This document shows positions 8,857 to 24,096 of a stretch of 30,086 bases of DNA, piece by piece; the stretch's first letter is position 1; every line of letters starts with the position of its first letter. Where the stretch lies: assembly GCA_025453595.1 (NCBI GenBank), contig JALOQB010000032.1, positions 1-30,086 of the forward strand. The letters run 5' to 3'. A model generated the notes under the pieces. The model was not told the DNA's origin, made no database searches, and saw nothing but the letters and a program-made list of their open reading frames with translations. Position numbers and translations under genes: made by a program. This stretch comes from Polyangiaceae bacterium. Lineage in GTDB: Bacteria; Myxococcota_A; Polyangia; Polyangiales; Polyangiaceae.

Positions 8857-9771
8857 TCAGGGGCAAGACCAACCAGAGCGGTCCTTGAGCCTCCCTTGCT
8901 TGCCGGTCGGTACGTGATGGAGATCTCCCGGCTCTCCCTGCCCCGGAGGAGCGCCATGTTGCGTCACATTGATGGGGTTGAGGCCGATCCTTTCGTGCAA
9001 CGTGGGGGCCTTCAAGTACACATCCCAGTGGTAGCCCCCTCCGGTGGCTGGCCGGGCCCACGCGTTCCCCTGAGCGTCCAGCCAGCAAGGCCGCCCAGAG
9101 TGCACCCCGCACACCCTGGTGGAGCGCCTCTCCCAGTATGGCGAAAGGCAGAAGGGGTGAGCACCAGGGCAGGGGGCGACGGGGAGACGACCGTCCATCC
9201 GAATCGAAAACGGAGCCTCGACATGGCGAGGCCTTGCGATCCACCGGACTGCCCTCGGGGATCGCCCCTGCAAGGCCGCGTAAAGCCTCCACCGGGTCAC
9301 CTCGAGCAGTTCCACACCACCAGAAGAACGATCGCAAGAATTACGCCCTTCTATGTGGTTGCACAGAACAGCGACGTCCTCCTGATGTGCCTGCAGCAAG
9401 GCAGCGCCGAGGACCTCGGTGACGATGTTTGTCCAGTCTTTGCCAAGCCCGCTCCATGCCGCAAGCTCACGCACCCCCCAGACTCTCCCCGCCACAGAAA
9501 CCTTGGAGAGCACACGCCCGCGCCTTGCAAACTCACGGAGCCTGTCGACAGCTTGCTTGAGGTTGCGGTCAGCGCCGTTGAGGTCAGGTCCCTCGGTCCG
9601 GTACACCTCGTCGAAGTAAGCAAAATCTCCCACCTTCGAGAGCAAGACAAAGCCAGGCAACCGAAGGAGCAAGTTGGCATCCTCGACCCGCTGGAGGAGG
9701 CATTTTTTTGCCATGTCACCCGAGAGTCCAGGTTGGCGGAAGAACCCAGGGTCAAGGACCAGCAGGGTCAC
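8857..9771 (-). CDS. Hypothetical protein, translationally coupled partner of the islet ATPase. Function unknown, and the distal half is of doubtful coding quality.
   Basis: GTG start at 9771 overlaps the ATPase TGA (GTGA). The first about 165 aa (MTLLVLDPGFF...VAVLCNHIEGRNSCDRS) have normal composition and lower GC. The remaining about 140 codons are W/C/H/R/P-rich and could be non-coding read-through or a frameshifted tail. Confidence 0.4.
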   Translation of the reverse strand: MTLLVLDPGFFRQPGLSGDMAKKCLLQRVEDANLLLRLPGFVLLSKVGDFAYFDEVYRTEGPDLNGADRNLKQAVDRLREFARRGRVLSKVSVAGRVWGVRELAAWSGLGKDWTNIVTEVLGAALLQAHQEDVAVLCNHIEGRNSCDRSSGGVELLEVTRWRLYAALQGRSPRAVRWIARPRHVEAPFSIRMDGRLPVAPCPGAHPFCLSPYWERRSTRVCGVHSGRPCWLDAQGNAWARPATGGGYHWDVYLKAPTLHERIGLNPINVTQHGAPPGQGEPGDLHHVPTGKQGRLKDRSGWSCP

Positions 9772-11411
9772 GGCTTCGAGCCCGCGAGACTGGCCGGGTG
9801 GGGAGGCTCTCCGTCATCATCGGGCTCCTCACCTTCGTCGTGGATTACTCCCGAAGAATTCCCGGGACTTCCCACATTTTTACGCTTATCCAGCCCGGCA
9901 TCGTAGATGTCACGCTCTTCGTCCGTAGCGACATCCATGAAGTCGCTCGGCCACCGCTCGACATCGCCGCTGGAAGTCAGGCTAGAGATATCGATGCGAG
10001 ATCGTCCCTTGGCGTCCTGAGACACCTCGACGATGCGGACGTTCTCGCGGAGCCATGTCTCCATCTCGCTCCCCTCGGGAACGCGAGCGATCAAGCCACG
10101 TAGCCTGCGGACCAGGTGATCGCTGTGGGTCTCGACGATGAGGTTTCGCCCGCTCCGAGCCAGCGCGACAAACCAGTGGGCCAGCGAGGACTGGAGCTTA
10201 GGATGGACGTGAGCCTCGGGCTCCTCGATGGCGCCATGAGAGAATTTCTGGAGCTGGGCAAGGAACGCGACACGTTCAAGGTTGACCTTAGAGCTGTCAA
10301 AACGCCTGGGGTCGAGCAAGAGCCCGTACTCGATCACCGGGAGCAGGTAGGTCAATCCGCGGCCGACATGCTGAAAATTGGACTTACCAAAGAGGAGTTG
10401 AAAACCGAGATCCCTCTCGGCGATGGAGACCTTACCATGCACCCCCATCGACGCTAGCACGTCGTTGACGGCCCCCTCGAGCGGCTGGGCACGGAGCGAA
10501 GGAAGCTCTGTGATCTTGCCGCCTTCGACCTGGAGAGGGGGTAGGTAGTGAACCCTGTCGTTACGGCGAGCATGCAGGAGTTGCGCAGCATACTGGCCTG
10601 AGACCCCGAGGGTCTCGGGCGGGGTAGTCGCGGCACGATAGAGGAGCGGCGGCGGCTCGCGAAGAGAGCTGAGGTAGCCAAAGTCTCGAAGCACAGCGCG
10701 GAGATCTTCCAGAGGCTGGACAAAGAGGAAAGTCCATAGATGAAGCTGGAGCCTTACCCCTGCGCGAGGGCCGATCTTCATCGAACGCTTGAGCGAGAGG
10801 ACAGGGAGAAAGTGATCCCATTCGATATCCACCTCGCTAAAGTAGTTTCCGTTCAAGAGAGCATGATCTCGAGGATTCTCCTTGGAAATTTTCGCCTTGT
10901 AGCCCCGGGAACAAAGTTCAGAGCTGAGCGATCTGAGAGCAACAGAGGCGAGGAAAGCTCGCTTCTTTTCTTGCCTGAATTGGAGGCGAATTTCGGTCTG
11001 CACCTTGGCTTTGGGAAGGTCGGATGAAAAGCCATCTAGCCCCCCTTCTTTTAGTTGAATTTTCGATGTTTTTCCGATCGCCTCGCGGGCCTTTGCGAGA
11101 TCGATTTCTGATTCAAATGTCAAGCAGATGGCAGGTCCCTCGATGGTCTCGCTATCTTCGTCCCCACCAGGCCACCCGGAGGTGAGTTCCTGCAAACTGA
11201 TGGCCTCGACGGCGCCCTCAAGGTGGAGAGAAACTTCGGTGCGTGGGTAGTCGAGGGTTTGTTTGAGGAGCAAGAGAGCCTGGACCAGGGAACTCTTGCC
11301 GCTATTATTGCGGCCCACCAGCACGGTGAGAGGAGCCAGGTTGAGGTGTGTGCGAGCTTCATAGCTTTTGAAACGTTCGACCTCGATTGAAAGGAGTCGG
11401 GCGCGCGCCAT
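9768..11411 (-). CDS. ABC-type AAA_21/AAA_15-family ATPase, as in the OLD, Septu PtuA, PARIS AriA and Gabija GajA N-terminal families. The C-terminal tail may be DUF3696-like.
   Basis: ATG at 11411. Walker A is 'LTVLVGRNNSGKSSLVQALLLL'. The signature/Q-loop-like region is 'GRGLTYLLPVIEYGLLLD'. Walker B and the H-loop are 'AIEEPEAHVHPKLQSSLA...NLIVETHSDHLV'. The C-terminal 'VERWPSDFMD' is recalled from memory as resembling the end of DUF3696. GC is low, about 50%. Confidence 0.8.
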   Translation of the reverse strand: MARARLLSIEVERFKSYEARTHLNLAPLTVLVGRNNSGKSSLVQALLLLKQTLDYPRTEVSLHLEGAVEAISLQELTSGWPGGDEDSETIEGPAICLTFESEIDLAKAREAIGKTSKIQLKEGGLDGFSSDLPKAKVQTEIRLQFRQEKKRAFLASVALRSLSSELCSRGYKAKISKENPRDHALLNGNYFSEVDIEWDHFLPVLSLKRSMKIGPRAGVRLQLHLWTFLFVQPLEDLRAVLRDFGYLSSLREPPPLLYRAATTPPETLGVSGQYAAQLLHARRNDRVHYLPPLQVEGGKITELPSLRAQPLEGAVNDVLASMGVHGKVSIAERDLGFQLLFGKSNFQHVGRGLTYLLPVIEYGLLLDPRRFDSSKVNLERVAFLAQLQKFSHGAIEEPEAHVHPKLQSSLAHWFVALARSGRNLIVETHSDHLVRRLRGLIARVPEGSEMETWLRENVRIVEVSQDAKGRSRIDISSLTSSGDVERWPSDFMDVATDEERDIYDAGLDKRKNVGSPGNSSGVIHDEGEEPDDDGEPPHPASLAGSKP

Positions 11412-11423
11412 AGTTTCATCGGT

Positions 11424-11450
11424 AGTCTACCTTTGTCGCTTGGTTGTCAA
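11424..11450 (-). promoter_or_regulatory. Putative sigma70-like promoter for the islet ATPase operon (TTGACA-N15-TAGACT).
   Basis: On the minus strand 'TTGACAaccaagcgacaaaggTAGACTaccgatgaaactATG' has a perfect -35 and a 4/6 -10. It sits in an AT-rich stretch ending about 12 nt before the start codon, which implies a very short leader. Confidence 0.3.
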
Positions 11451-11736
11451 TGCTCTTTTGATCGAGCCACAGCCGGCATAGTCATTTGATCGAAAGCGCC
11501 GGAGCACGATGACAGCGCCCGCAATGAGGACAGGCAGACACGCTCGCGGCCGAGGCCGCCCTGGAGGGCGAGCAGCTATCCAGGCGGAGGCCTACCCGTT
11601 CGCGGGGTCCGAAGCCCGGAACGCAGAGTTCGAGACCCGGAAGCTGGGGGCCGGCGCGTGAGCAGGATTGCCGGCAGACCTTCCAGGGCTCGATGCGCAA
11701 CGCGGACCGGTGGGTGAAGCTGCCGGCGTGACGAGG

Positions 11737-11828
11737 TATAGAGGCGCCGATGCACACGCGACTTCCACGGGTCTCTGCAGCCTTCGCCTTGCTGATAAGC
11801 GCGAACGCAGGCGCGCAGCCGGCGGGGT
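11737..11828. repeat. Right copy of the imperfect direct repeat, forming the start of the intact MscS gene.
   Basis: See the left copy at 8614-8705. Confidence 0.6.
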
Positions 11829-13027
11829 CCGCGGCGGCCCGGGCTCCGCGGCCAGCCGTCTCCGCGGAGGCCCTCGGCAAGGGGGCCGAGACCTGGGTGG
11901 TGGAGCTGGTTCCCGACCGGTTTCTGGGCGTCTCGCTCTGGGGCCTCGCCCTGTGGCAGTGGCTGGGCATCGTGATCGGCCTGGTGCTGGGCTGGATCGT
12001 GGCGACGCTGGTGGCGTCCGGGGTCGTCGCCGCCCTCAACGGCCTCGTGAAGCGCACCGCCGCCACCTGGGACGACCTGCTGCTCCAGTCGTCGCGGCGC
12101 CCCGTCCGGCTGCTGCTGTGGGTCCTGCTCTTCCAGCTCGCCTGCTCCCAGCTCGCCCTGCCCGGCAGCGCCGACCGCAACGTGGGCCACCTCGCTTACA
12201 CCGGCTACGTCATCGGCGGCGCCTGGTTCCTCCTCACCCTGCTCAACACCGGCACCTCGCTCTACGAGGGCGCCCTCGCCGACGACACCGCCGGCGAGCT
12301 CCGCAGCCGCTCGCTCCGCACACGGCTGACCGTCGCCCGGAGCATCACCTCCGTGCTGCTGCTGCTCGCCGCCGGCGCCATCCTGCTGATGCAGTTCGAG
12401 GTGGTGCGCAACATCGGCCTCTCCCTCCTCGCCTCCGCCGGCGTCGGCGTCGCGGTCATCGGCTTCGCGGCGCAGAAATCCCTGGCGGGCGTGGTGGCCG
12501 GGATCCAGCTCTCGATCTCCCAGCCCGTCCGCATCGGCGACCTGATCCAGTTCGAGAACGAGCTGGGCAACATCGAGGAGATCAACCTCACCTACGTCGT
12601 CATCAAGCTCTGGGACGAGCGCCGCCTGGTGGTGCCCATCTCCAAGTTCGTCGAGGCCAACGTCCAGAACTGGAGCCGCGGCCACCTCCAGCTCCTCGGT
12701 ACCGTGTTCATCCACGCGGACCCCACGGTCCCCGTCCCCCTGGTCCGCGCCGAGCTCGAGCGCCTCTGCGCCGCCCACAAGCTCTGGGACCAGCGCAAGG
12801 CCCTCCTCGCCGTCACCGACATGAGCCCCGACTCCATCACCCTGCGCGCCCTCGTCTCCGTCAGCCACCCGGACCACTTCTTCGACCTGCGCAACGACGT
12901 CCGCGAGGGCCTCATCGCCTTCCTCCAGCGCCTCGACGGCGGCGCCTACCTGCCCCGCCGCCGCTGGGTCATGACCCCTTCCTTCCCTTCCCCCGAGGCC
13001 CCCAGGGAGACCCCCTCCGGGGAGTGA
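11750..13027 (+). CDS. MscS-family mechanosensitive ion channel with a signal peptide and an extended N-terminus.
   Basis: The ORF is 425 aa with N-terminal signal-like 'RVSAAFALLISANAGAQ' and TM helices. The conserved MscS pore and beta-domain region is 'GVGVAVIGFAAQKSLAGVVAGIQLSISQPVRIGDLIQFENELGNIEEINLTYVVIKLWDERRLVVPIS'. Confidence 0.8.
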   Translation: MHTRLPRVSAAFALLISANAGAQPAGSAAARAPRPAVSAEALGKGAETWVVELVPDRFLGVSLWGLALWQWLGIVIGLVLGWIVATLVASGVVAALNGLVKRTAATWDDLLLQSSRRPVRLLLWVLLFQLACSQLALPGSADRNVGHLAYTGYVIGGAWFLLTLLNTGTSLYEGALADDTAGELRSRSLRTRLTVARSITSVLLLLAAGAILLMQFEVVRNIGLSLLASAGVGVAVIGFAAQKSLAGVVAGIQLSISQPVRIGDLIQFENELGNIEEINLTYVVIKLWDERRLVVPISKFVEANVQNWSRGHLQLLGTVFIHADPTVPVPLVRAELERLCAAHKLWDQRKALLAVTDMSPDSITLRALVSVSHPDHFFDLRNDVREGLIAFLQRLDGGAYLPRRRWVMTPSFPSPEAPRETPSGE

Positions 13028-13031
13028 TCGC

Positions 13032-16000
13032 TTGCACCCTTCTCCTCGCCCCGCTCCCCTCCTCCTGGGCTCCTGGCTCCTGGCCCTGACCCTCTTCGCC
13101 CCCACCCTCTCCCGGGCCCAGCAGCCCTCCCCCGGCCCCTCCAGCAGCGCCCCCGCCACCTCCGCCTCCAGCAACCCCGCCCCTTCCCCGGAGCGCCAGA
13201 CCCTGCTGCGAATCCTGGAGCTGTTCGAGGGCTCCCTTGATGTCAAAATAGACCCGCAAACGCTCTTCGAGCCACCGCTGGAGGACGAGGGGGCGCTGCG
13301 GCTGGCGGCGGCGCGGAGCCGGGCGCTCCTGCGGGAGGTGACCGAGCCCCCGGGGAAGAAACAAGGTCCTCCACCGGCGCTGTCGGCGGGGGCCCTGTCG
13401 CCGGCGGTGGAGGCGGCGGCGCAGCGGATGAAGCTGGAGCCGTCGAGGCTGGCGGAGGCGCTGGAGCTGGAGCAGGAGCGGCTGAAGTTTTACGAGCTGG
13501 AGGCGGAGCAGCGGGGGAAGCTGCTGGCCGCCCACCGGGAGCGGCAAGAGACGGCGAGGGCCGCGGAGGCGGCGAAGGCGAGCGAGGAGTCCGAGGAAGA
13601 GCGGCGGGCCAAGGAGGCAGAAGAGGAGCGGCAGCGGGCGCTGAAGGCGGCGCAGCAGGCCAGGAGCGAGGCGGATCGCCTGGTGTCGGAGGAGCTGGCG
13701 CGGCTGCTGGGGCTCGAGAAGACGCTGGTGGCGCGGTCGGCGGAGCTGGATGACGAGCGCAAGCGGTTGCTCCAGCGGAGGGACGAGCTGCTGGGGCTGA
13801 GGCAGCGGGCGAGGGCCTCGCTGGAGCAGGGGGAGGCGGAGCGCGACGCGAGCTACCGCGAGCTGCAGCAGCGGCACCGGAAGGCCCGGGAAGAGATGAG
13901 CGGGGTGATGGAGGAGCTGAGGTCATCCAAGACCCGCATCCCGGCGCTGGGGGACGATCCGTTGAGGGATTTCCGCGGGAGCGTCTCGACGGAGAAGGTG
14001 AAGGCGCAGCGGCAGCGGCTGGAGGCGCTGCGGGGCGGGCTGCTGGGGAAGGAGCGGAGGCTGCTGGGAGAGCGAGCGGAGGGGCTGCTGGACGAGCTGG
14101 ACGGGATCAACCAGGAGCGGCTGGGGCTGCTGCCGCGCCTGTCCACGGGGCTGCGGGCCTCGGAGCTCAGCTTCTCGGAGCGGGGGCTGGAGCAGGCGCG
14201 GGCGGAGGTGGCGCACCTGAAGTTGATCTTGCAGGCGCACGGTCATACGGCGCAGGAGTGGCTGCGTGGGTGGAGGGACCAGCAAGGGTCCGCGGGGGAG
14301 GTGGCGCTGCGGCTGGCGACGGCGGTGCCGTGGCTGCTGCTGCTGGTGATTTTTGCCTGGTGGAGGCGCGGCAGCCGCAAGCTCTTCGAGGAGCTGGAGG
14401 AGCGGCTGGAGCGGGAGGAGCGGCGCCACCCGTTCCTGGCGCGGCGAGGGCCGGTGCGGCTGTACCGATTCTTGCTGTCGATACGGCGGACCGTGGAGCT
14501 GATGCTGCTGGTCTCCGCGATGCACTGGCTGCTGCCCGAGGAGACGCGGGCGCTGCTGGAGGTGCAGCTGCTGACGCTGGGGGTTTCCTGGTCCCTCGCG
14601 GGGAGCCTCGTGGTCACCGCGATCAACACGCTGGCCTCCGGGGGGCGCCAGCGCTCGGGGGAGGCAGCCCGACGCGACCGGCTGCGCCTGCGATCCCTGC
14701 GGCTGGTGGGGCGCACGGTGGTGCTGGTGGCGCTGCTGCTGGTCGCGAGCACCCGGCTGGTGGGCGAGGGGACGATCCACCACTGGATCCTGTCGCTGAG
14801 CTGGCTCACGCTCCTGCCGCTCTTCCTGCTGCTCGTGCACTGGTGGCGGGGCGAGCTGCTGGCGCGCCTGCGCAAGGAGGGGAGCCAGGGGCCGCTGCAC
14901 CGCTGGGTACCGGAGCGCCCGGGCGCCTCGTTCGGCCTGGCCGCGGCCTCGCTGGCGGCGCTGTACCTGGGCGCGAGCGCCGCGGCGCGCCTGGCCCGGG
15001 GCTGGGTCAACGGGTTCAACCTGGCCCGCAAGGCCCACGCGTACCTCTTCCAGCGCGAGCTGGACAAGCTCAACCGGGAGCACCTCACCGCCCGGTACAG
15101 CCCCCTGTCCGAGGGAGAGCTGGAGCGGCTCGGGCCAGGGTCGCCTTCCGTCTCCTGGATCGCGGGGCCCGAGGACGACGCCATCGGGCTCATCAAGGAG
15201 CGCGTCGAGGCGCGGCAGGGCAACGTGATCGCCCTGGTCGGGGCCCGGGGCATGGGCAAGAGCACCATGCTGCGCCAGCTGCGCCAGGGCGAGGATGCGC
15301 TCTGGGTCGACGGCGAGGGCGAGGACCTGGAGTTCATCCGCCGATCCCTCGCGGATCAGCTCGACCTCGACAGCATGGCCTCCCTGTCCGCCATCGGCGC
15401 CGCCCTCGACCAGGAGAGCCGCCCCCGCCTGCTGCTCCTCGACGGGGCTCGCGCCCTGATCCGTCCGGTCATGGGCGGCCTCGCCGGCTTTGATCAGCTC
15501 GTCAACGTCGCCCGCTCCTGCAGCCAGCGCGCCGTGTGGGTCATCGCCATCGACGCGGTTGTATGGAAGTTCCTGTCATGCGCCCGGGGCGTGTACCCGC
15601 TCTTTGACGAGGTGATCTTCCTGAAGCCCTGGGGCGAGGACCGGATCGCCGAGCTGCTCCAGCAGCGGACCGGGGAGGTCGAGCTGGCGCCGAGCTTCGA
15701 GCGGCTGCTGGAGGAGCCGGTGGTGGACGAGCTGGAGCTGGCGGAGGCGCTGCAGGAGCGCAAGGCGTCGTATTTCCGGCTGCTGTGGGATCAGGCGGGG
15801 GGCAACCCGGGGGTGGCGCTGGAGCTCTGGCGCCATGCCCTGGCGCGGGACGAGGGGGGCAAGGTCCAGGTGAAGCCCCTGCGGACGCCGGACGCGGAGG
15901 ATCTGGAGCAGCTGCCGGACGAGGCGCTCTTCGTGCTCCGGGCGATCCTGCAGCTCAGCCCCGCGACGCCGGAGCAGGTCGAGGCGGCGACGGGGCTCGA

Positions 16001-16145
16001 CGGCAAGACGATCCAGGACGCGCTGCGCTACGGCCTGGCCCACGACTACCTGCAGCAGCGGGACCGGAGGTACCTGGTAAGCTGGTCCTGGTACCCCTTG
16101 CTCGAGCAGCTCTTGCAGCGCCGTCAGCTCCTGGTGAAGCCATGA
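13032..16145 (+). CDS. Large membrane protein: signal peptide, about 400 aa of periplasmic coiled coil, a multi-TM region and a C-terminal AAA+ (Orc1/Cdc6-like) P-loop NTPase domain.
   Basis: TTG start at 13032 with a GGGGAG RBS about 9 nt upstream. The signal peptide is 'LLLGSWLLALTLFAPTLSRAQQ'. A long E/R/A/L coiled coil follows. Hydrophobic segments include 'VPWLLLLVIFAWW', 'VELMLLVSAMHWLL', 'VVLVALLLVAS' and 'WLTLLPLFLLLVHWW'. Walker A is 'VIALVGARGMGKSTML'. Walker B is 'RLLLLDGA'. A sensor-2-like 'AGGNPGVALELWRHAL' is present. It lies 4 nt after the upstream MscS gene, and its stop overlaps the next start. Confidence 0.7.
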   Translation: MHPSPRPAPLLLGSWLLALTLFAPTLSRAQQPSPGPSSSAPATSASSNPAPSPERQTLLRILELFEGSLDVKIDPQTLFEPPLEDEGALRLAAARSRALLREVTEPPGKKQGPPPALSAGALSPAVEAAAQRMKLEPSRLAEALELEQERLKFYELEAEQRGKLLAAHRERQETARAAEAAKASEESEEERRAKEAEEERQRALKAAQQARSEADRLVSEELARLLGLEKTLVARSAELDDERKRLLQRRDELLGLRQRARASLEQGEAERDASYRELQQRHRKAREEMSGVMEELRSSKTRIPALGDDPLRDFRGSVSTEKVKAQRQRLEALRGGLLGKERRLLGERAEGLLDELDGINQERLGLLPRLSTGLRASELSFSERGLEQARAEVAHLKLILQAHGHTAQEWLRGWRDQQGSAGEVALRLATAVPWLLLLVIFAWWRRGSRKLFEELEERLEREERRHPFLARRGPVRLYRFLLSIRRTVELMLLVSAMHWLLPEETRALLEVQLLTLGVSWSLAGSLVVTAINTLASGGRQRSGEAARRDRLRLRSLRLVGRTVVLVALLLVASTRLVGEGTIHHWILSLSWLTLLPLFLLLVHWWRGELLARLRKEGSQGPLHRWVPERPGASFGLAAASLAALYLGASAAARLARGWVNGFNLARKAHAYLFQRELDKLNREHLTARYSPLSEGELERLGPGSPSVSWIAGPEDDAIGLIKERVEARQGNVIALVGARGMGKSTMLRQLRQGEDALWVDGEGEDLEFIRRSLADQLDLDSMASLSAIGAALDQESRPRLLLLDGARALIRPVMGGLAGFDQLVNVARSCSQRAVWVIAIDAVVWKFLSCARGVYPLFDEVIFLKPWGEDRIAELLQQRTGEVELAPSFERLLEEPVVDELELAEALQERKASYFRLLWDQAGGNPGVALELWRHALARDEGGKVQVKPLRTPDAEDLEQLPDEALFVLRAILQLSPATPEQVEAATGLDGKTIQDALRYGLAHDYLQQRDRRYLVSWSWYPLLEQLLQRRQLLVKP

Positions 16146-17053
16146 ACCCTCGCTCTGGTCCCCCCGGGGTTGCCCTCCGCCTCGCCTGCGCCCTGGCCCT
16201 GTGGTCCGGCCTGGCGGCGGCCCAGGATATGCCGGACGTCAGCAAGATCGCGGGCTTCGTCCGGTGGGGTGGGGTGCTGCTCTCGGCCCCGCTGGTGCTG
16301 GGCTCGCTGGTGGTGCTCCGGCTCATCGAGGACGGCGCCAGGAAGCTCGGGGAGCGCTTCCCCAACCGGCGCCCGACGCTGCAGAAGCTCGAGTCGGTGC
16401 TGCGCTTCGTCGTGTACATCGCGACGGTATCGCTGTGCATCTGGCTCAGCGTCCGCCTCGATCCGGCGGCGCTGGCGGTGATCGGCGGCGCCCTCGCCTT
16501 CGCGGTGGGCTTCGCCACGAGGGACCTGGTGGCCGCCTTCGTCGCCGGCCTCACCATCATCTTCGACCGACCGTTCCAGGTGGGCGACCGGGTGAACTAC
16601 GGGGGGCAGTACGGCGATATCACCAAGATCGGGCTGCGCAGCGTCCAGATGAACACGCTCGATCACAACGTGATCACCATCCCCAACAACAAGGTGCTCA
16701 CCGACGTCACCTCCAGCGGCAACTACGGCGCCCTCGAGATGCAGGTCGCCATGGATTTCTACATCGGCATCGACCAGAACGCCCGGCTCGCGGCCCAGCT
16801 CGTCGAGGAGGCCTGCCTGGTGAGCCCCTACGTGTTCCTTGGCCACCAGGTCCCCGTCGAGATCCGCCAGGAGCTCCTCCACGACCTCGTCGTCCTCCGC
16901 CTCAAGGCGCGCCCTTACGTCTTCGACTGCAAGTACGAAAAACGCTTCGAGACCGACGTCCACCTGCGGGTCCTGGAGGCCTTCCGGCGCCACAGCATCG
17001 CCCCCCCGGCGATCCTCCACCGCGACGCCCGCGGCGCCCCTCAGAAGCCGTAG
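16142..17053 (+). CDS. MscS-family small-conductance mechanosensitive channel.
   Basis: ATG at 16142 overlaps the upstream TGA (ATGA). The sequence 'DRPFQVGDRVNYGGQYGDITKIGLRSVQMNTLDHNVITIPNNKVLTDVTSSGNYGALEMQVAMDFYI' is canonical MscS. The six-frame ORF extends upstream to 15785, but that stretch lies inside the previous gene. Confidence 0.85.
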   Translation: MNPRSGPPGVALRLACALALWSGLAAAQDMPDVSKIAGFVRWGGVLLSAPLVLGSLVVLRLIEDGARKLGERFPNRRPTLQKLESVLRFVVYIATVSLCIWLSVRLDPAALAVIGGALAFAVGFATRDLVAAFVAGLTIIFDRPFQVGDRVNYGGQYGDITKIGLRSVQMNTLDHNVITIPNNKVLTDVTSSGNYGALEMQVAMDFYIGIDQNARLAAQLVEEACLVSPYVFLGHQVPVEIRQELLHDLVVLRLKARPYVFDCKYEKRFETDVHLRVLEAFRRHSIAPPAILHRDARGAPQKP

Positions 17054-18657
17054 CGCAGCTTGTACGGGATGCAGGCGTTGCTATCCACCACGTCCACCAG
17101 CACCCGCACGTCCGCCGACTCCTCATCGCCCTGGCAATTGAGGTTGGGCGTCAGGTTCCCGTCCGTCGAGCAGCAGCCGGGGCCGAAGGGCGTGGTCGAG
17201 GCCGAGTCGCCCCCGTTGCACGAGACCTGCTGACCCGCCACCGTCGGCCCGTTCTTGCACTTGAAATACGCGCACACGCGCACCCCGTTCCCCTGGGTAA
17301 ACTGGAAGGTCGGGTTCAGCTCGCACTGGATCGTGTCCTCGAAGTCCAGGCGGTACCAGTCCCGATCCGACGCCTCGCTCAGCGCCCCCTCCGCCACCAG
17401 CACCGAGTTGAACGAGCAGTCGTCGACCTGCCCCAGATCCGCCGCCGTGTCCGCCGTGTTGTTCGGCTCGTGAATGTCCTCCTCGCACGGGTCTGTCCCC
17501 GCAAAGACCTTCGTCTTGCAGATCCCCACGACCCCCTTGCCGCCCGCGAAGGTCTGCTTGTTGCACACCCCCCCGTTGCAGTCGCTGTCATCGCAGCAAT
17601 ACGCCTGGCACACCCCGTTGGAGCAGATGTTCCCGGCCTCGCACGGGTTCGCCTGGTTGCACCCCTCGCAGGTCGCCTGCGCGTTGCCCAGGGACGAACA
17701 GAAGAACGTTCCCCCATTCTGGTTGCTGAAGCGGCACGCCTGGCTGTCGCTGCACCCCTGGTTGGTGATCGGGTTGCAGTTGAAGCCATTGCTTCCCAGG
17801 GTAACGCAAGACCCCCCCGATGCGATCGGATCAGGCAGGTCACAGACCGGGTTGGTCGTCCCTTGCTGGCAAGCATCGCAGCTCGCCTCCGAGCAGCTTC
17901 GCAAGGCCAGAAACTCCGGGTCGTTCTGGCAATCCTTCCCCGCGTTGACGCTCACCAGGCACGCCTTGCAGTTGTCCCCGCAGGCCGCCGCCTCCGCGCA
18001 GCAGTTCTGCGTCAGGCACTCGCCGCAGGCCCCGGAGAAGCCCGTGCCGCAGCTGGGCGCACCGCCAGCCCCCGCCCCCGCCTGTCCGGAACCTCCGGCT
18101 CCCGCCGATCCGCCCGCCCCCGCTGGATCGGAGCCTCCCGCCCCCGCTGGATCGGAGCCGCCAGCCCCCGCAGGATCGCTCCCACCCGCCCCCGCCGGAT
18201 CGCTCCCACCCGCCCCCGCAGGATCGCTCCCACCCGCACCCGCAGGATCAGAACCGCCCGCCCCCGCAGGATCAGAACCGCCCGCCCCCGCCGGATCGGA
18301 GCCGCCCGCGCCCGCAGGATCGCTCCCACCTGCCCCCGCAGGATCGGAGCCGCCCGCGCCGGCCGGATCGCTGCCACCCGCACCCGCCGGGTCGCTCCCA
18401 CCCGCACCCGCCGGATCGCTCCCGCCTGCACCTGCTGGCTCGGAGCCACCGGCGCCGGCGGTACCACCCACCCCCGCGGTGCCCCCTGCGGAGCTACCGG
18501 CAGAGCCGCCCTGCGCGCCAGCGCCGGCGGTGCCAGCGCCGCCCGCGGTGCTCCCGGCAGAGCCACCTGCAGCGACGTTTCCAAGGCCGGTCTCGTCGGT
18601 GCCGCAGGCGAGGAGGAAGAGACCGGAGAGCAAGAAGGGGAGCAAGGATGTACGCAT
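17041..18657 (-). CDS. Lipoprotein with a tandem octapeptide-repeat linker (SDPAGAGG, about 14 copies), a Cys-rich domain and a C-terminal PPC-like (pre-peptidase C-terminal) domain.
   Basis: The lipobox is 'LFLLACGTDE'. The repeat block is (GSDPAGAG)n. The region has over 40 Cys in CxxC/CC patterns. The C-terminus has 'EPNNTADTAADLG...DRDWYRLDFED', which is PPC-domain-like. Confidence 0.7.
   Translation of the reverse strand: MRTSLLPFLLSGLFLLACGTDETGLGNVAAGGSAGSTAGGAGTAGAGAQGGSAGSSAGGTAGVGGTAGAGGSEPAGAGGSDPAGAGGSDPAGAGGSDPAGAGGSDPAGAGGSDPAGAGGSDPAGAGGSDPAGAGGSDPAGAGGSDPAGAGGSDPAGAGGSDPAGAGGSDPAGAGGSDPAGAGGSAGAGGSGQAGAGAGGAPSCGTGFSGACGECLTQNCCAEAAACGDNCKACLVSVNAGKDCQNDPEFLALRSCSEASCDACQQGTTNPVCDLPDPIASGGSCVTLGSNGFNCNPITNQGCSDSQACRFSNQNGGTFFCSSLGNAQATCEGCNQANPCEAGNICSNGVCQAYCCDDSDCNGGVCNKQTFAGGKGVVGICKTKVFAGTDPCEEDIHEPNNTADTAADLGQVDDCSFNSVLVAEGALSEASDRDWYRLDFEDTIQCELNPTFQFTQGNGVRVCAYFKCKNGPTVAGQQVSCNGGDSASTTPFGPGCCSTDGNLTPNLNCQGDEESADVRVLVDVVDSNACIPYKLRYGF
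18100..18450. repeat. Tandem repeat array: 24-bp unit, about 14-15 copies, with mostly synonymous variation.
   Basis: Read directly on the plus strand: 'gcccccgc(a/t)ggatcg(gag/ctc)cc(g/a)cc(c/a)' repeated. It encodes SDPAGAGG units on the minus strand. Confidence 0.7.
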
Positions 18658-20554: not shown

Positions 20555-22141
20555 GTGCTTGCGATGCAGAACGTGATCCGAAAGCTCAGCCTGGCCACCT
20601 TGCTGGTCATCCCCCTCGTCACCGGCGCCGGCTGCGAGGCCGCCGACAAGCTCAAGGAGGCCCAGGGTGACCTGTGCTGCACCGACTTCAAGGTGGGCGC
20701 TGACCTGAGCAACATTGACTGGGGTATCGAGGGCGAAGGCAAGGCCGAGTTCTCGGCGTTCATGCAGGCCTCCGCCGACTTCGCGGCGTCCGCCAGCGGC
20801 CTGGTGCTCGAGCTCGGCACCCTCTGCCAGGCCGTCGCCGTCGACATGGGCGCGGACGAGAACGAGGTGAAGGAGACCGACCCGGGCAACCGCGCCGCCG
20901 CCTGGTGCAACATCGTCGTCACCAGGATCAAGGCCGCCGGCTCCATCTCCATCGAGGCCCAGCCCCCGGTCTGCTCCATCAGCGCCAGCGCCCAGGCCAA
21001 CTGCGAGGCCAGCTGCTCCGGCAAGGCCGAGTGTCAGCTCCAGCCCGGCGAGCTGCCCCAGTGCGAGGGCGGCGAGGCCTCCTTCTCTTGCGAGGGCAAG
21101 TGCCAGGGCTCCTGCTCCGGCTCCGCTGACCTCGCCGTCACCTGCGAGGGCTCCTGCTCCGGTACCTGCGAGGGGTCCTGCGAGGGTACCTGCGAGGGCA
21201 AGTGCAACGGTACCGAGAGCAACGGCCAGTGCCAGGGCACCTGCGAGGGCACCTGCTCCGGCTCCTGCGCCGGCAAGTGCCGCGGCTCCTGCAAGGCCGA
21301 GGCGAACGCCAACCTCGAGTGCGAGGGCGAGTGCACCGGCTCCTGCGAGGGGACCATCAAGGCCCCGCGCTGCTCCGGCGGCTCCCTGCCCAAGGCCAAG
21401 TGCGAAGTCTCGGCCGACTGCTCCGGCTCCTGCAGCGCCAGCGCCCAGGCCAAGGCCGAGTGCAAGCCCGGCAGCCTCCGCATCAAGGCCGCCGGCGAGC
21501 TCAACGCCCGCGCCGTCGCCTCCCTCGAGGCGAACCTCCCCAAGATCCGCGTCCTCCTCGAGGCCAAGGCCAAGCTCCTCGCGGCCAACGCCCAGGCGGT
21601 GGTCCAGGTCGGCGGTCGCTTCACCGCCAAGGGCAACCTCAGCGTCAAGGCCACGGCCTGCCTGATCCCCGCCGTCGCGGCCCTCAGCGAGGCCGCTGGC
21701 AACGTCCAGGCGACCGGCACCGTCAGCGCCGAGTTCTCCGGCGCCATCAAGTTATCCAGCTTGCAGCGCCCCCGCAGGGGAGCGACCATCGACCGATGCG
21801 TCTCGCGGGCCCGTCCCCCCTGCCCCGCTGGCTCCTGGCCACCACCCTCCTCTCCGCGGCCCTCGCGGCCTGCGGCGAGGGGCTGGGCGCAGCTCCAGGC
21901 TCCGAGGGCGCCGGGGCCTCCAGCGGAAACGGCGGCGGTGGCGCTCCGGCCAGCGTGCTCTCCGGCGAGGCCCTCTACAAGCAGCACTGCGCCTCCTGCC
22001 ACGGCCCCACCGGCGAGGGCGCCACCGGCCCCTCGCTCAGGGGCTGGTCCCGGGGCGAAGCGGTGCTCCGCGAGGCCATCGAGACCCGCATGCCACCGCA
22101 GAACCCCGCCGCCTGCCAGGGGGCCTGCGCGCGGGACGTGA
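20555..22141 (+). CDS. Cys-rich lipoprotein with CEGxC repeats. The plausible native protein ends near 21750 and the ORF has no stop until 22141.
   Basis: A GAAGGAG RBS lies 7 nt upstream of the ATG at 20555. The lipobox is 'LVTGAGC'. Repeats such as 'CEGSCSGTCEGSCEGTCEGKCNG' are present. The distal Pro/Arg/Ser-rich tail overlaps the next gene's start region in another frame, which suggests a frameshift or an undetected stop. Confidence 0.6.
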   Translation: MLAMQNVIRKLSLATLLVIPLVTGAGCEAADKLKEAQGDLCCTDFKVGADLSNIDWGIEGEGKAEFSAFMQASADFAASASGLVLELGTLCQAVAVDMGADENEVKETDPGNRAAAWCNIVVTRIKAAGSISIEAQPPVCSISASAQANCEASCSGKAECQLQPGELPQCEGGEASFSCEGKCQGSCSGSADLAVTCEGSCSGTCEGSCEGTCEGKCNGTESNGQCQGTCEGTCSGSCAGKCRGSCKAEANANLECEGECTGSCEGTIKAPRCSGGSLPKAKCEVSADCSGSCSASAQAKAECKPGSLRIKAAGELNARAVASLEANLPKIRVLLEAKAKLLAANAQAVVQVGGRFTAKGNLSVKATACLIPAVAALSEAAGNVQATGTVSAEFSGAIKLSSLQRPRRGATIDRCVSRARPPCPAGSWPPPSSPRPSRPAARGWAQLQAPRAPGPPAETAAVALRPACSPARPSTSSTAPPATAPPARAPPAPRSGAGPGAKRCSARPSRPACHRRTPPPARGPARGT

Positions 22142-24096
22142 CCGCCTACATCCTGGCCCAGTTCGGCGCCCCCCCCCTGGTCTGCAAGGGCGATGAGCTC
22201 CCGCCACGGCGGCTCCGGCTGCTGAACCGGCGCGAGTACAACGCCACCATCCGGGACCTGCTGCGGCTCGGCGAGGACGCGAGCACCGGGGCCTCCTGCT
22301 CCACCGACGCGGACTGCAACATCTCCGAAGAATCCTGCGTCGCTGGCGCCTGCCAGCAGGACCCTTGCGGCCTCCACACCTTCGTGCTTCCGGCGCCCAG
22401 CCCCCTCCCCACGACCGTGCATGTCGCGGGCAGCTTCAACGGGTGGCCCGGCACCGTCGCCGCAGGAGGGTGGAAGATGACCCATGTGCCCAGCAAGGGC
22501 CTCTACGTCGCCAAGAAGGCGCTGCAAAACGGCGATTATTCGTACAAATTTGTCATCAACGAGGCCACCTGGATCAGCGACCCGGGGAACCCGAAGGGCG
22601 AGCCTGACGGGTTCGGCGGCCAGAACTCGTTGCTCAGCGTGGCCTGCTCGGCGCCGGGGGGCACCGGGGGGGCACCGCCGGAGCTGGATCTTGCCAAGAG
22701 CTTCCCGGTCGAGAGCCGCCCCAAGGGGTTCAGCTACGACAACAGCGCGACCGCGGGCCTGGTCACCTCGATCCACGTGGAGCAGTACCTCAAGGCCTCG
22801 GCCCAGGTGGCCAAGCTGGCCCTCGGCAACGCCGCCAAGCTGCTGCCCTGCAGCCCGGCGACGGAGAGCGCCTGCCGGACGACCCTCGTGCAGCAGCTCG
22901 GGCGCCGCGCCTTCCGCAGGCCCCTCACCGCCGCCGAGAGCGCGCGCTACGAGAAGCTGGCCTCCCTGCAAGATGGGCACGAGACCGCCGTCGAGGCGGT
23001 GGTGCGCGCCCTGGTGCTCTCCCCTCACTTTCTCTACCGCTCCGAGGTCGGCGTGCCCCAGCCCGACGGCACCTTCCGCCTCTCCCCCCACGAGATCGCC
23101 ACCGCCCTCTCCTACGCCTTCTGGGGCACCATGCCCGACGACGAGCTGGCCGCCGCCGCCGACAGCGGGGCCCTCGCCTCCCCCGACGCCATCGAGGCCC
23201 AGGCCCGCCGCCTCCTCGCCAGCCCCCGCGCCCGCCCCGCCCTCGCCGCCTTCAGCGCCCAGTGGCTCGGCATCGAGGGGGTCCCCTCCCTCGCCCGCAG
23301 CTCCGTGCTCTACCCGGGCTGGTCCGCCGCCCTCGGCGAGGCCATGCTCGACGAGTCCCGACGCCTCGTCGAGCACGTCGTCTTCGACGGCACCGGCAAG
23401 CTCGAGGAGCTCCTCACCGCCGACTACTCCTTCCTCGACCCCCAGCTCGCGTCGGTCTATGGAGCCTCTCTACCCTCGGGGGCCGGCAAGGCGCAGCTCC
23501 CGCCGGAGCGCAGGGCGGGGCTGCTGACCCACGGGAGCGTGCTGGCGAGCACGTCCCACTCGGACCAGTCGTCGCCGATCCGGCGAGGGCTTTTCGTGCG
23601 AGAGCGGCTGCTCTGCCAGGACCTGGGGCAACCGCCGGCGAACGCGGGGGGCGTGCCGGAGGTCGACCCGAAGGCGACCACGCGGGAGCGGTTCCGGCAG
23701 CACTCGAGCGACCCGACCTGCCGCAGCTGTCACCAGTACATCGACGAGGTGGGGTTCGGGATGGAGCGCTTCGACGCGATCGGCCGCTACCGGACGGAAG
23801 AGAACGGCCAGCCGATCCCGCCGGACGGGGACATGAACGACGTCGAGGGGCTGGGGACAGGGACGAAGGGGGCCTACACCAGCCTGCCGGAGCTGGCCTC
23901 CATCGTGGCCCGGAGCGAGGCGTTCCACGGTTGCTTTGCGCGGCAGGCGTACCGGTTTGCCCACGGGGCGATGGAGGGGGACGCGGACCGCTGCGCGCTG
24001 CAGGCGCTGGAGGGCCGCTTCGAGGCGTCCGGGTACGACGTGCGCGAGCTGTGGGTGGCGATCACGCGGCTCCCCGGCTTCGCCGCGCGGCGGTGA
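21796..24096 (+). CDS. Cytochrome-c-domain lipoprotein of the Planctomycete/myxobacterial DUF1587/1592/1595/1588/1585 type, with an internal CBM48/AMPK-beta-like module.
   Basis: ATG at 21796 with GGGGAG upstream. The lipobox is 'LSAALAACG'. The haem motif is 'CASCHG'. The module 'VHVAGSFNGWPG...DYSYKFVINEATWISDPGNP' is CBM48-like. The C-terminal 'CRSCHQYIDEVGFGMERFDAIGRYR' and 'PELASIVARSEAFHGCFARQAYRFAHG' are typical of this family. Confidence 0.75.
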   Translation: MRLAGPSPLPRWLLATTLLSAALAACGEGLGAAPGSEGAGASSGNGGGGAPASVLSGEALYKQHCASCHGPTGEGATGPSLRGWSRGEAVLREAIETRMPPQNPAACQGACARDVTAYILAQFGAPPLVCKGDELPPRRLRLLNRREYNATIRDLLRLGEDASTGASCSTDADCNISEESCVAGACQQDPCGLHTFVLPAPSPLPTTVHVAGSFNGWPGTVAAGGWKMTHVPSKGLYVAKKALQNGDYSYKFVINEATWISDPGNPKGEPDGFGGQNSLLSVACSAPGGTGGAPPELDLAKSFPVESRPKGFSYDNSATAGLVTSIHVEQYLKASAQVAKLALGNAAKLLPCSPATESACRTTLVQQLGRRAFRRPLTAAESARYEKLASLQDGHETAVEAVVRALVLSPHFLYRSEVGVPQPDGTFRLSPHEIATALSYAFWGTMPDDELAAAADSGALASPDAIEAQARRLLASPRARPALAAFSAQWLGIEGVPSLARSSVLYPGWSAALGEAMLDESRRLVEHVVFDGTGKLEELLTADYSFLDPQLASVYGASLPSGAGKAQLPPERRAGLLTHGSVLASTSHSDQSSPIRRGLFVRERLLCQDLGQPPANAGGVPEVDPKATTRERFRQHSSDPTCRSCHQYIDEVGFGMERFDAIGRYRTEENGQPIPPDGDMNDVEGLGTGTKGAYTSLPELASIVARSEAFHGCFARQAYRFAHGAMEGDADRCALQALEGRFEASGYDVRELWVAITRLPGFAARR

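Follow-up and report, generated by a model that had tools for sequence, protein, structure and literature searches.

An MscS-family channel conserved in tandem with a predicted membrane AAA+ protein in Polyangiaceae and other bacteria

The stretch of DNA analysed here (30,086 nucleotides from a Polyangiaceae bacterium, contig JALOQB010000032.1, positions 1-30,086, forward strand; hereafter the window) carries an operon in which MscS2, a channel of the MscS family, is encoded directly downstream of a large protein with a predicted periplasmic domain, a transmembrane (TM) region and a C-terminal AAA+ module. The latter is referred to here as the accessory protein. The conserved unit at this locus consists of two genes, those encoding the accessory protein and MscS2. 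We propose that these proteins form a heteromeric inner-membrane complex in which the accessory protein would serve as a nucleotide-switch regulatory subunit, and we assign this reading a probability of about 0.5.

The MscS family is the standard model of tension-gated channels, and the known regulation of its members comes from domains fused in cis, including the MscK periplasmic domain, cyclic nucleotide monophosphate (cNMP) domains and EF hands. We know of no description of a separately encoded, dedicated accessory subunit that brings an ATP switch to an MscS channel. The preliminary description of this DNA, made from the sequence alone, held that the stoichiometric coupling of a P-loop NTPase to mechanosensitive channels had not been described, and literature searches are in line with this: no description of an MscS channel paired with an ATPase was found in full-text articles, nor by term search in a 2026 survey of STAND NTPases. 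The accessory protein has no family in Pfam, NCBIfam or PADLOC beyond generic AAA models. The components are of known kinds; their combination is new.

Organization and conservation of the accessory-MscS2 gene pair

The operon in the window consists of three co-directional genes, all on the + strand. MscS1 (11750-13027) encodes a 425-residue MscS-family paralogue and ends in a TGA stop codon. Four nucleotides separate this codon from the TTG at 13032, which is the sole in-frame start for the 1037-residue open reading frame (ORF) of the accessory gene (13032-16145). The accessory gene and MscS2 (16142-17053, encoding 303 residues) share an ATGA stop/start overlap at 16142-16145, an arrangement suited to translational coupling. 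These ORF coordinates bear out the operon, with its 4-nucleotide gap and its overlap, as it was first described. MscS1 and the accessory gene are clearly coding because their third-position GC content is 0.93-0.95; the GC content of the window is approximately 70%. A promoter and terminator scan within the operon gave no signal exceeding that of shuffled sequence. Both flanking genes had been assigned to the MscS family, and the proteins that they encode match PF00924 above the Pfam gathering score (cut-off 20.2; MscS1: 60.4 bits, E-value 1.8e-16; MscS2: 64.3 bits, E-value 1.1e-17).

The pairing proves to be very strongly conserved in both directions. A genome scan with one genome per species detected relatives of the accessory protein in 256 species, from which 80 loci were retrieved. 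Of these loci, 76 have room for a downstream gene, and in 75 of them an MscS2 orthologue (E-values 1e-90 to 1e-145) of the same orientation immediately follows the accessory gene. At locus L084 the ORF call missed MscS2 through runs of N, and the gene was found by tblastn (59% identity). For the reverse comparison, 80 metagenome loci were picked by MscS2 similarity alone (47-75% identity); these come from soil, sludge and marine samples. Of these metagenome loci, 63 have upstream room, and in 62 the accessory gene directly precedes the MscS2-type channel gene.

The junction between the two genes is also conserved. A 4-nucleotide ATGA or GTGA overlap is present at 50 of 78 junctions, and every other gap is 39 nucleotides or less. 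Accessory and MscS2 identities co-vary across loci (Pearson 0.85, n=41 loci). The two proteins differ in their degree of conservation: the median identity of MscS2 orthologues is 61% versus 32-42% for most of their accessory partners. When all ORFs around the pair were clustered, no other gene family was conserved, with the commonest present in 13/80 loci. Apparent accessory-MscS2 fusions, such as a 1302-residue ORF in locus L076, are alternate-frame ORFs of high-GC DNA.

Of the three genes, the neighbourhood survey shows joint conservation for the accessory gene and MscS2 only. An MscS1 orthologue lies directly upstream in the window and in two metagenomic relatives that are 97-99% identical to it (L003 and L004), and in no other locus; because of this restriction, MscS1 falls outside the conserved unit. 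The next relative (49% identity) has an unrelated, opposite-strand gene in the MscS1 position. MscS1 and MscS2 are just 23% identical over 140 residues. MscS1 is a lineage-specific paralogue recruited into the operon. Other MscS paralogues are found in the flanks of approximately 26/80 loci; 14 immediately follow MscS2. The paralogues differ from one another in position, strand and sequence. As this frequency is judged to be far above chance expectation, the recruitment of a second MscS gene looks recurrent.

These paralogues bear on a possible obligatory three-subunit complex of MscS1, the accessory protein and MscS2, with, for example, a heteromeric MscS1/MscS2 pore. The tight spacing in the window (the 4-nucleotide gap and 4-nucleotide overlap) would suit such a complex, as would the enrichment of MscS paralogues near the module, which extends to a Caulobacter plasmid. 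However, an upstream MscS1 is lacking in 80 other genomes as well as in the relative of 49% identity, and the extra paralogues are inconsistent in position, strand and sequence, so an obligatory role for MscS1 appears most improbable.

The accessory family is large and uncharacterized, and it spans Myxococcota, Alphaproteobacteria and Gammaproteobacteria. An exhaustive phmmer search of 1.84 billion cluster representatives (50% identity) used residues 425-1037 as the query because coiled-coil words saturate a whole-protein search. This search returned 1434 representatives at E<1e-3, of which 434 reach E<1e-30. Among the best 150 representatives, nearly all are 950-1250 residues in length, with a match that reaches the C-terminus and a common layout. 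The names that these proteins carry in their sources are solely generic ("AAA family ATPase", "ATP-binding protein" or "hypothetical protein"). The 80 retrieved loci belong mainly to Polyangiaceae and other Myxococcota, with a few from Steroidobacteraceae, other Gammaproteobacteria and Caulobacter or Brevundimonas, and one from a Fibrobacteria metagenome-assembled genome (MAG).

Cultured strains carry the pair as well, again with generic annotation: Caulobacter sp. NIBR2454 (plasmid pNIBR24541, WP_269717132.1 and WP_269717133.1, with a 4-nucleotide overlap and a second MscS gene after the pair), Novosphingobium pentaromativorans US6-1 (pLA3, WP_007014233.1 and WP_039857743.1, with an accessory protein just 28% identical to that of the window) and Corallococcus sp. 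4LFB (with a 4-nucleotide overlap). Because the module occurs in these strains, its proposed function is directly testable. No viral contig carries the module, and it is found on 3 of 72,556 plasmids. In three MAGs the module is duplicated on separate contigs (L024/L037, L043/L069 and L070/L078).

Predicted architecture of MscS2 and the accessory protein

MscS2 consists of a signal peptide, a conserved periplasmic N-terminal peptide, three TM helices, a beta-domain and a C-terminal domain. In phmmer searches it matches 39 solved MscS-family sequences, including MscS, YnaI, MscK and MscM chains, and its hhalign comparison with E. coli MscS has a probability of 97.7% over 159 columns. Its orthologues show almost no variation in the pore-lining helix and the beta-domain. 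Two invariant phenylalanines, F120 and F124, align with the L105/L109 hydrophobic gate of E. coli MscS, and the invariant R127-D128 pair aligns with Q112-G113 at the TM3 hinge. The conserved periplasmic peptide that follows the signal peptide has the pattern A-x-A-Q-D-x-P-D ... R-W-G-G, and two cysteines of the cytoplasmic domain (C225 and C263) are invariant in the MscS2 clade. The clade-specific periplasmic peptide, the cysteines and the Arg-Asp pair could be contact or regulatory sites.

The layout of the accessory protein was predicted from hydropathy, loop charge and an AlphaFold2 model (built on a 48-sequence alignment; mean predicted local distance difference test [pLDDT] score of 86). 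Coordinates of its parts are all on the + strand. Residues 1-29 (13032-13118) form a predicted signal-peptide-like N-terminus with a hydrophobic segment at residues 8-27 and the ending TLSRA/QQ, and a low-complexity linker follows. The predicted periplasmic domain (residues 50-426; 13179-14309) is modelled as long antiparallel helices with pLDDT scores that are mostly >90. These helices span residues 124-416 approximately, and several are about 50 residues in length, including those at 158-209, 213-263 and 321-369. The domain contains the invariant residues E213, D272, Y275, P304, N360 and R363. No Pfam family matches the N-terminal 700 residues, periplasmic domain included, in either the window protein or 48 family members. 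Sequence matches in the PDB to a ribosome hibernation factor (E-value 0.005) and to TrlF (E-value 2e-4) involve the charged coiled-coil segment and were judged to be compositional.

Hydropathy predicts a five-TM region at residues 427-604 (14310-14843). Its cytoplasmic loops contain 11, 8 and 6 lysine and arginine residues and its periplasmic loops contain 1 and 0; because these residues are concentrated in the cytoplasmic loops, the topology is predicted to be N-out and C-in. At the cytoplasmic end of TM4, where the chain enters that helix, arginines form a stripe along a conserved helix (RRDRLRLRSLRLVGR; 14670-14714), and R552, S555, L556 and V559 are conserved in the TM region. Further along, an Ala/Gly-rich hydrophobic helix leads into a long cytoplasmic stalk (residues 634-700; 14931-15131), as predicted from composition and from an AlphaFold2 helix at residues 632-688. 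By this predicted topology, the ATPase is cytoplasmic and the helical domain is periplasmic. Hydropathy, the AlphaFold2 model and loop charge therefore support the layout originally read from the sequence: a signal peptide, approximately 400 residues of periplasmic helices, several TM helices and a cytoplasmic ATPase.

This layout recalls those of MscK (KefA) and MscM (YjeP), which likewise have a signal peptide, a large helical periplasmic domain and extra TM helices around a C-terminal MscS core, and whose gating is modulated by factors beyond tension, such as K+ in MscK. The preliminary description took the periplasmic and TM region for part of a split MscK. In this scenario, an ancestral MscK/KefA gene was divided such that the accessory protein corresponds to its N-terminal two-thirds with an inserted ATPase and MscS2 to its C-terminal third. 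The order of parts is indeed alike (signal peptide, approximately 400 residues of periplasmic helices, several TM helices and MscS core), and the top Foldseek match of the periplasmic and TM model (residues 50-700, modelled separately with a pLDDT score of 88.5) is E. coli MscK (7uw5_A). This match is not significant (E-value 0.098, probability 0.72, TM-score 0.17), and among the 350,542 chains searched none matches the model at E<1e-3. At the sequence level, the accessory protein matches neither NCBIfam PRK11281 nor PRK10929, has no Pfam link to MscK or MscM and matches no MscK or MscM sequence in the PDB at E<=1. The 48-member profile aligns to E. coli MscK with an hhalign probability of 0.1%, and the BLASTP E-value is 0.58. 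Homology is unsupported by these comparisons and a split MscK gene is very unlikely. MscK is also a single polypeptide with no nucleotide-binding domain, whereas two genes are involved here, and no homology between the accessory protein and MscK can be detected by sequence. What the two have in common is their architecture, which may reflect analogy rather than homology.

The predicted cytoplasmic AAA+ module (15171-16121) consists of an alpha/beta base (residues 714-880 approximately), a helical lid with a GNP motif (approximately 900-936) and a winged helix (approximately 956-1030), with AlphaFold2 pLDDT scores >90. Three motifs quoted for this protein in the preliminary description are found in the module: the Walker A motif GARGMGKST (residues 737-745; 15240-15266), the Walker B motif LLLLDGA (residues 800-806; 15429-15449) and the lid motif GGNPGVALELW (residues 923-933; 15798-15830). 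When the whole model was compared with the PDB using Foldseek, the best matches were archaeal Orc1/Cdc6 proteins (1w5t, 2qby and 2v1u; E-values 8e-7 to 7e-6, probability 1.0), with alignments of approximately 400 columns at 9-15% identity. Eukaryotic ORC/Cdc6, RuvB, Apaf-1, CED-4 and plant NLRs rank lower. Because archaeal Orc1/Cdc6 proteins are ranked first, the label "Orc1/Cdc6-like AAA+" is correct as regards fold.

The sequence of the module places it in a poorly resolved Orc/Cdc6-STAND neighbourhood. In the window protein, Pfam AAA_16, AAA_22 and AAA_14 give weak matches that are all below their cut-offs (AAA_16: 28.1 bits versus 32.6). The family as a whole is better recognized, with AAA_16 matched in 44/48 aligned members and AAA_22 in 43/48, and weak nSTAND, NB-ARC and NACHT matches also occur among the 48 members. 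The accessory proteins do not fall in a curated ORC/Cdc6 family by sequence, as PF24389 (ORC-CDC6-like) is matched in just 3/48 members with an E-value of 0.004. Profile searches thus place the C-terminal domain among the P-loop NTPases through its family, though the window protein itself scores below the cut-offs; together with the Foldseek E-values of approximately 1e-6, they uphold a P-loop AAA+ domain of the Orc1/Cdc6-STAND type.

Comparison with each side of this neighbourhood gives a mixed picture. The accessory module shares the AAA+ base, lid and winged helix of Orc1/Cdc6 and ORC initiators, and its Walker A and B motifs are conserved. Unlike these initiators, it is tethered to a five-TM and periplasmic protein and genetically coupled to a channel, with no link to replication genes (clustering of ORFs from the 80 loci shows none that recur near the module). 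Its lid bears the GNP motif in place of the sensor-2 motif of ORC-type proteins. STAND NTPases, such as Apaf-1, the NLRs and AAA_16-type proteins, are oligomerizing switches; with these the accessory protein shares a nucleotide-binding domain, a helical domain with a GxP-like GNP motif and a winged helix. Neither the AlphaFold2 model nor Pfam searches of the 48 members show a C-terminal repeat sensor of the STAND type. Since the chain terminates directly after the winged helix, the accessory protein is without such repeats (TPR, WD40 or LRR) and has an N-terminal periplasmic and TM region instead.

Across the family the module conserves a Walker A motif (GxxGxGK[ST]) and a Walker B motif (hhhhD[DE]). 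The Walker A residues G740 and G742 are kept in 170/170 family members and K743 in 166/170. In Walker B, D804 is kept in 168/170, and position 805 is acidic (D or E) in 145/170. The lid residues G924-N925-P926 are essentially invariant across the family, and R852, R879, R916 and R934 are invariant or near-invariant among the 48 aligned homologues. The pattern of conserved residues makes the nucleotide switch look functional across the family.

The winged helix also has conserved basic residues (R970, R999, R1030 and R1031). With the top fold matches being DNA-binding Orc1/Cdc6 proteins, winged helix included, these residues would be consistent with a membrane-tethered signalling or DNA-binding device, in which MscS2 or the periplasmic domain senses envelope tension, the AAA+ module and winged helix provide the output on DNA or on a cytoplasmic partner, and ion flux would be incidental. 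Among AAA+ proteins, those of the STAND type included, a winged helix usually serves internal regulation, however. The pore helix and beta-domain of MscS2 are near-invariant, as would be expected of a working channel, and no conserved target genes are found nearby in the 80 loci. A device of this kind is distinctly unlikely.

Proposed model for the MscS2-accessory complex

Four lines of evidence argue for a physical and functional partnership between MscS2 and the accessory protein: near-universal two-way pairing in the sampled loci, translational coupling, co-divergence and selection on the periplasmic, TM and nucleotide-binding parts. From these we infer the complex itself, its stoichiometry and its control of gating. 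Modules of the Orc1/Cdc6 and STAND types act as switches that alter their oligomeric state in response to nucleotide; because they do so, nucleotide control of the MscS2 threshold is proposed.

The proposed model is as follows. MscS2 would be the pore-forming subunit, presumably a heptamer as in other MscS channels. The accessory protein would supply a periplasmic bundle of long helices (approximately 370 residues), and its five TM helices and Arg-striped interfacial helix would pack around the TM paddles of MscS2. The Orc1/Cdc6-STAND switch, reached via the stalk helix, would be held beside the cytoplasmic vestibule of the channel. ATP binding, hydrolysis and oligomerization of the switch would be relayed through the stalk and TM helices, and the relayed nucleotide state would set whether, or at which tension, MscS2 opens. 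The nucleotide state may itself be set by periplasmic or envelope input that passes through the TM helices. The release of ions or osmolytes would thereby be tied to a cytoplasmic or envelope signal and not to tension alone. Such a complex would work in an MscK-like manner, with the periplasmic domain and extra TM helices provided in trans by a non-homologous protein that bears a switch.

Several points weigh against this model. Modules of the Orc1/Cdc6 type usually work on DNA or serve as loaders, and a different role is possible for the winged helix of the accessory protein. At one locus with room for it (L031), the only one of its kind, no MscS2 orthologue lies downstream of the accessory gene (6605-9952). 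A natural fusion of the accessory protein and MscS2 is not found among 150 representatives or approximately 160 loci, the genes being separate at every locus examined. The window protein also deviates from its family at three positions: D805G (the second Walker B acid), R850C and R855Y (15429-15449 and 15579-15596). In the 48-sequence alignment, D805G and R850C are unique to the window protein; Y855 recurs only in P0002 (approximately 50% identical), and P0153 has C at this position. Because G805, C850 and Y855 replace near-invariant residues, ATP hydrolysis is possibly weakened in the window lineage, and the window switch may bind nucleotide but hydrolyze it poorly.

As a separate observation, locus L031 has a weak MscS-like ORF (5836-6495) on the opposite strand, just upstream of its accessory gene.

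A more specific form of the complex is a stoichiometric (for example, 7:7) assembly in which a ring of Orc1/Cdc6-STAND-like switches surrounds the MscS vestibule and gates the pore. This form is tentative and on balance doubtful. If correct, it would be the first P-loop-NTPase-gated channel of a mechanosensitive family, and solute release would be linked both to the energy state of the cell and to sensing in the envelope or periplasm. A close comparison is with the bacterial cyclic nucleotide-gated (bCNG) channels, in which an MscS pore is fused in cis to a cNMP-binding domain; the nucleotide domain here is instead a P-loop AAA+ module on a separate and much larger subunit. Control of a membrane channel would widen the range of functions of Orc1/Cdc6-STAND AAA+ proteins.

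The accessory protein might alternatively be an assembly or positioning factor, a membrane AAA+ protein that uses ATP and its periplasmic domain to insert, oligomerize or localize the channel in the envelope and is not a permanent subunit. The precedent is ExeA/GspA of type II secretion, an inner-membrane AAA_22 ATPase with a periplasmic domain and an adjacently encoded partner. AAA_22, the Pfam family that includes ExeA-type ATPases, is matched in 43 of the 48 members, Orc1/Cdc6-type AAA+ proteins are typically loaders or assemblers and strict gene pairing is equally compatible with a helper of this type. The order of parts in ExeA is the opposite (an N-terminal ATPase, one TM helix and a peptidoglycan-binding periplasmic domain), and the partner of the accessory protein is an MscS channel. 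Pfam detected no peptidoglycan-binding domain in the window protein or the 48 family members. The conservation of translational coupling points to production of the two proteins in matched amounts and away from a catalytic helper, and MscS channels are not known to require assembly factors. An assembly factor is therefore an unlikely explanation, and a regulatory subunit of MscS2 is preferred.

Upstream insertion and other genes of the window

A LysR gene (7469-8377, minus strand) lies upstream of the operon. In L003 and L004 it is divergently adjacent to MscS1 at a distance of approximately 230 bp, which fits the upstream divergent LysR of the preliminary description; in the window, its adjacency does not hold because a 3.27-kb insertion (8429-11701) intervenes between LysR and MscS1. 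This insertion has a low GC content (0.59-0.63) and is absent from L003 and L004. It replaces 133 bp of the LysR-MscS1 intergenic region and leaves 48 bp of shared sequence upstream of MscS1. Two genes are encoded in the insertion, both on the minus strand. The first (9768-11411) encodes a 547-residue AAA_15/AAA_21 ATPase whose best PADLOC match is NsnB (E-value 9e-48), with weaker matches to AriA, GajA and Old. The second (8857-9771) is a 304-residue ORF that overlaps the ATPase gene by 4 nucleotides and has no family match. The insertion looks like a strain-specific two-gene defence-type island in the promoter region of the operon.

The proximity of this island is one argument for an anti-phage or abortive infection function, in which a channel effector that depolarizes the cell would be opened by the STAND-like NTPase when it detects infection or damage to the envelope. 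The resemblance of the accessory protein to STAND NTPases (the Apaf-1/NLR fold matches and the weak nSTAND, NB-ARC and NACHT matches) is another, and membrane-permeabilizing effectors are common in defence systems. However, the island is strain-specific and is missing from near-identical relatives that retain the module; across near-identical strains the module is kept while the adjoining island varies. PADLOC-DB v2 has no match for MscS1 or MscS2, and for the accessory protein only PDC-S01 is matched, over the P-loop (E-value 7e-4). The 61% median identity of the channel and its co-divergence with its partner are unlike the behaviour of fast-turnover defence genes, and the module is absent from the viral contigs and rare on the plasmids described above.

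The neighbours of the pair point the same way, as no defence genes recur nearby and the recurrent neighbours are ion-transport genes. The minor recurrent families include a Na+/H+ exchanger (9/80 loci), a Usp-domain transporter (7/80), poly-gamma-glutamate CapB/CapC-like proteins (8) and LysR (7). These neighbours fit a function in ion or osmotic homeostasis better than one in defence. A defence function for the module is highly improbable, and regulation of MscS2 by the accessory protein remains the preferred reading.

Other genes of the window lie on both sides of the operon. A convergent gene (17041-18657, minus strand) overlaps the 3' end of MscS2 by 13 nucleotides. The signal sequence of its product resembles that of a lipoprotein (...LLAC), the C-terminal half is rich in cysteine, and Pfam and NCBIfam scans gave no match to the protein. 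The gene includes approximately 13 tandem units of the 8-residue sequence GGSDPAGA, with a 24-nucleotide period and repeats at 18110-18450. Further downstream are a gene for a DUF1592/DUF1588/DUF1585/DUF1595 protein with a cytochrome c domain (21130-24096) and one for a protein of approximately 1180 residues with a C-terminal Ser/Thr kinase domain (24766-28302). Genes of both types are widespread in Myxococcota and these two are seemingly unconnected with the operon. On the other side of the operon, the gene adjoining LysR (4539-7751, minus strand; 931 residues as called in relatives) encodes a protein that matches the shoulder domain of the major vault protein (PF11978, E-value 1.4e-23). It also shows weak matches to vault repeat domains and appears to be a bacterial protein of the major vault protein type.

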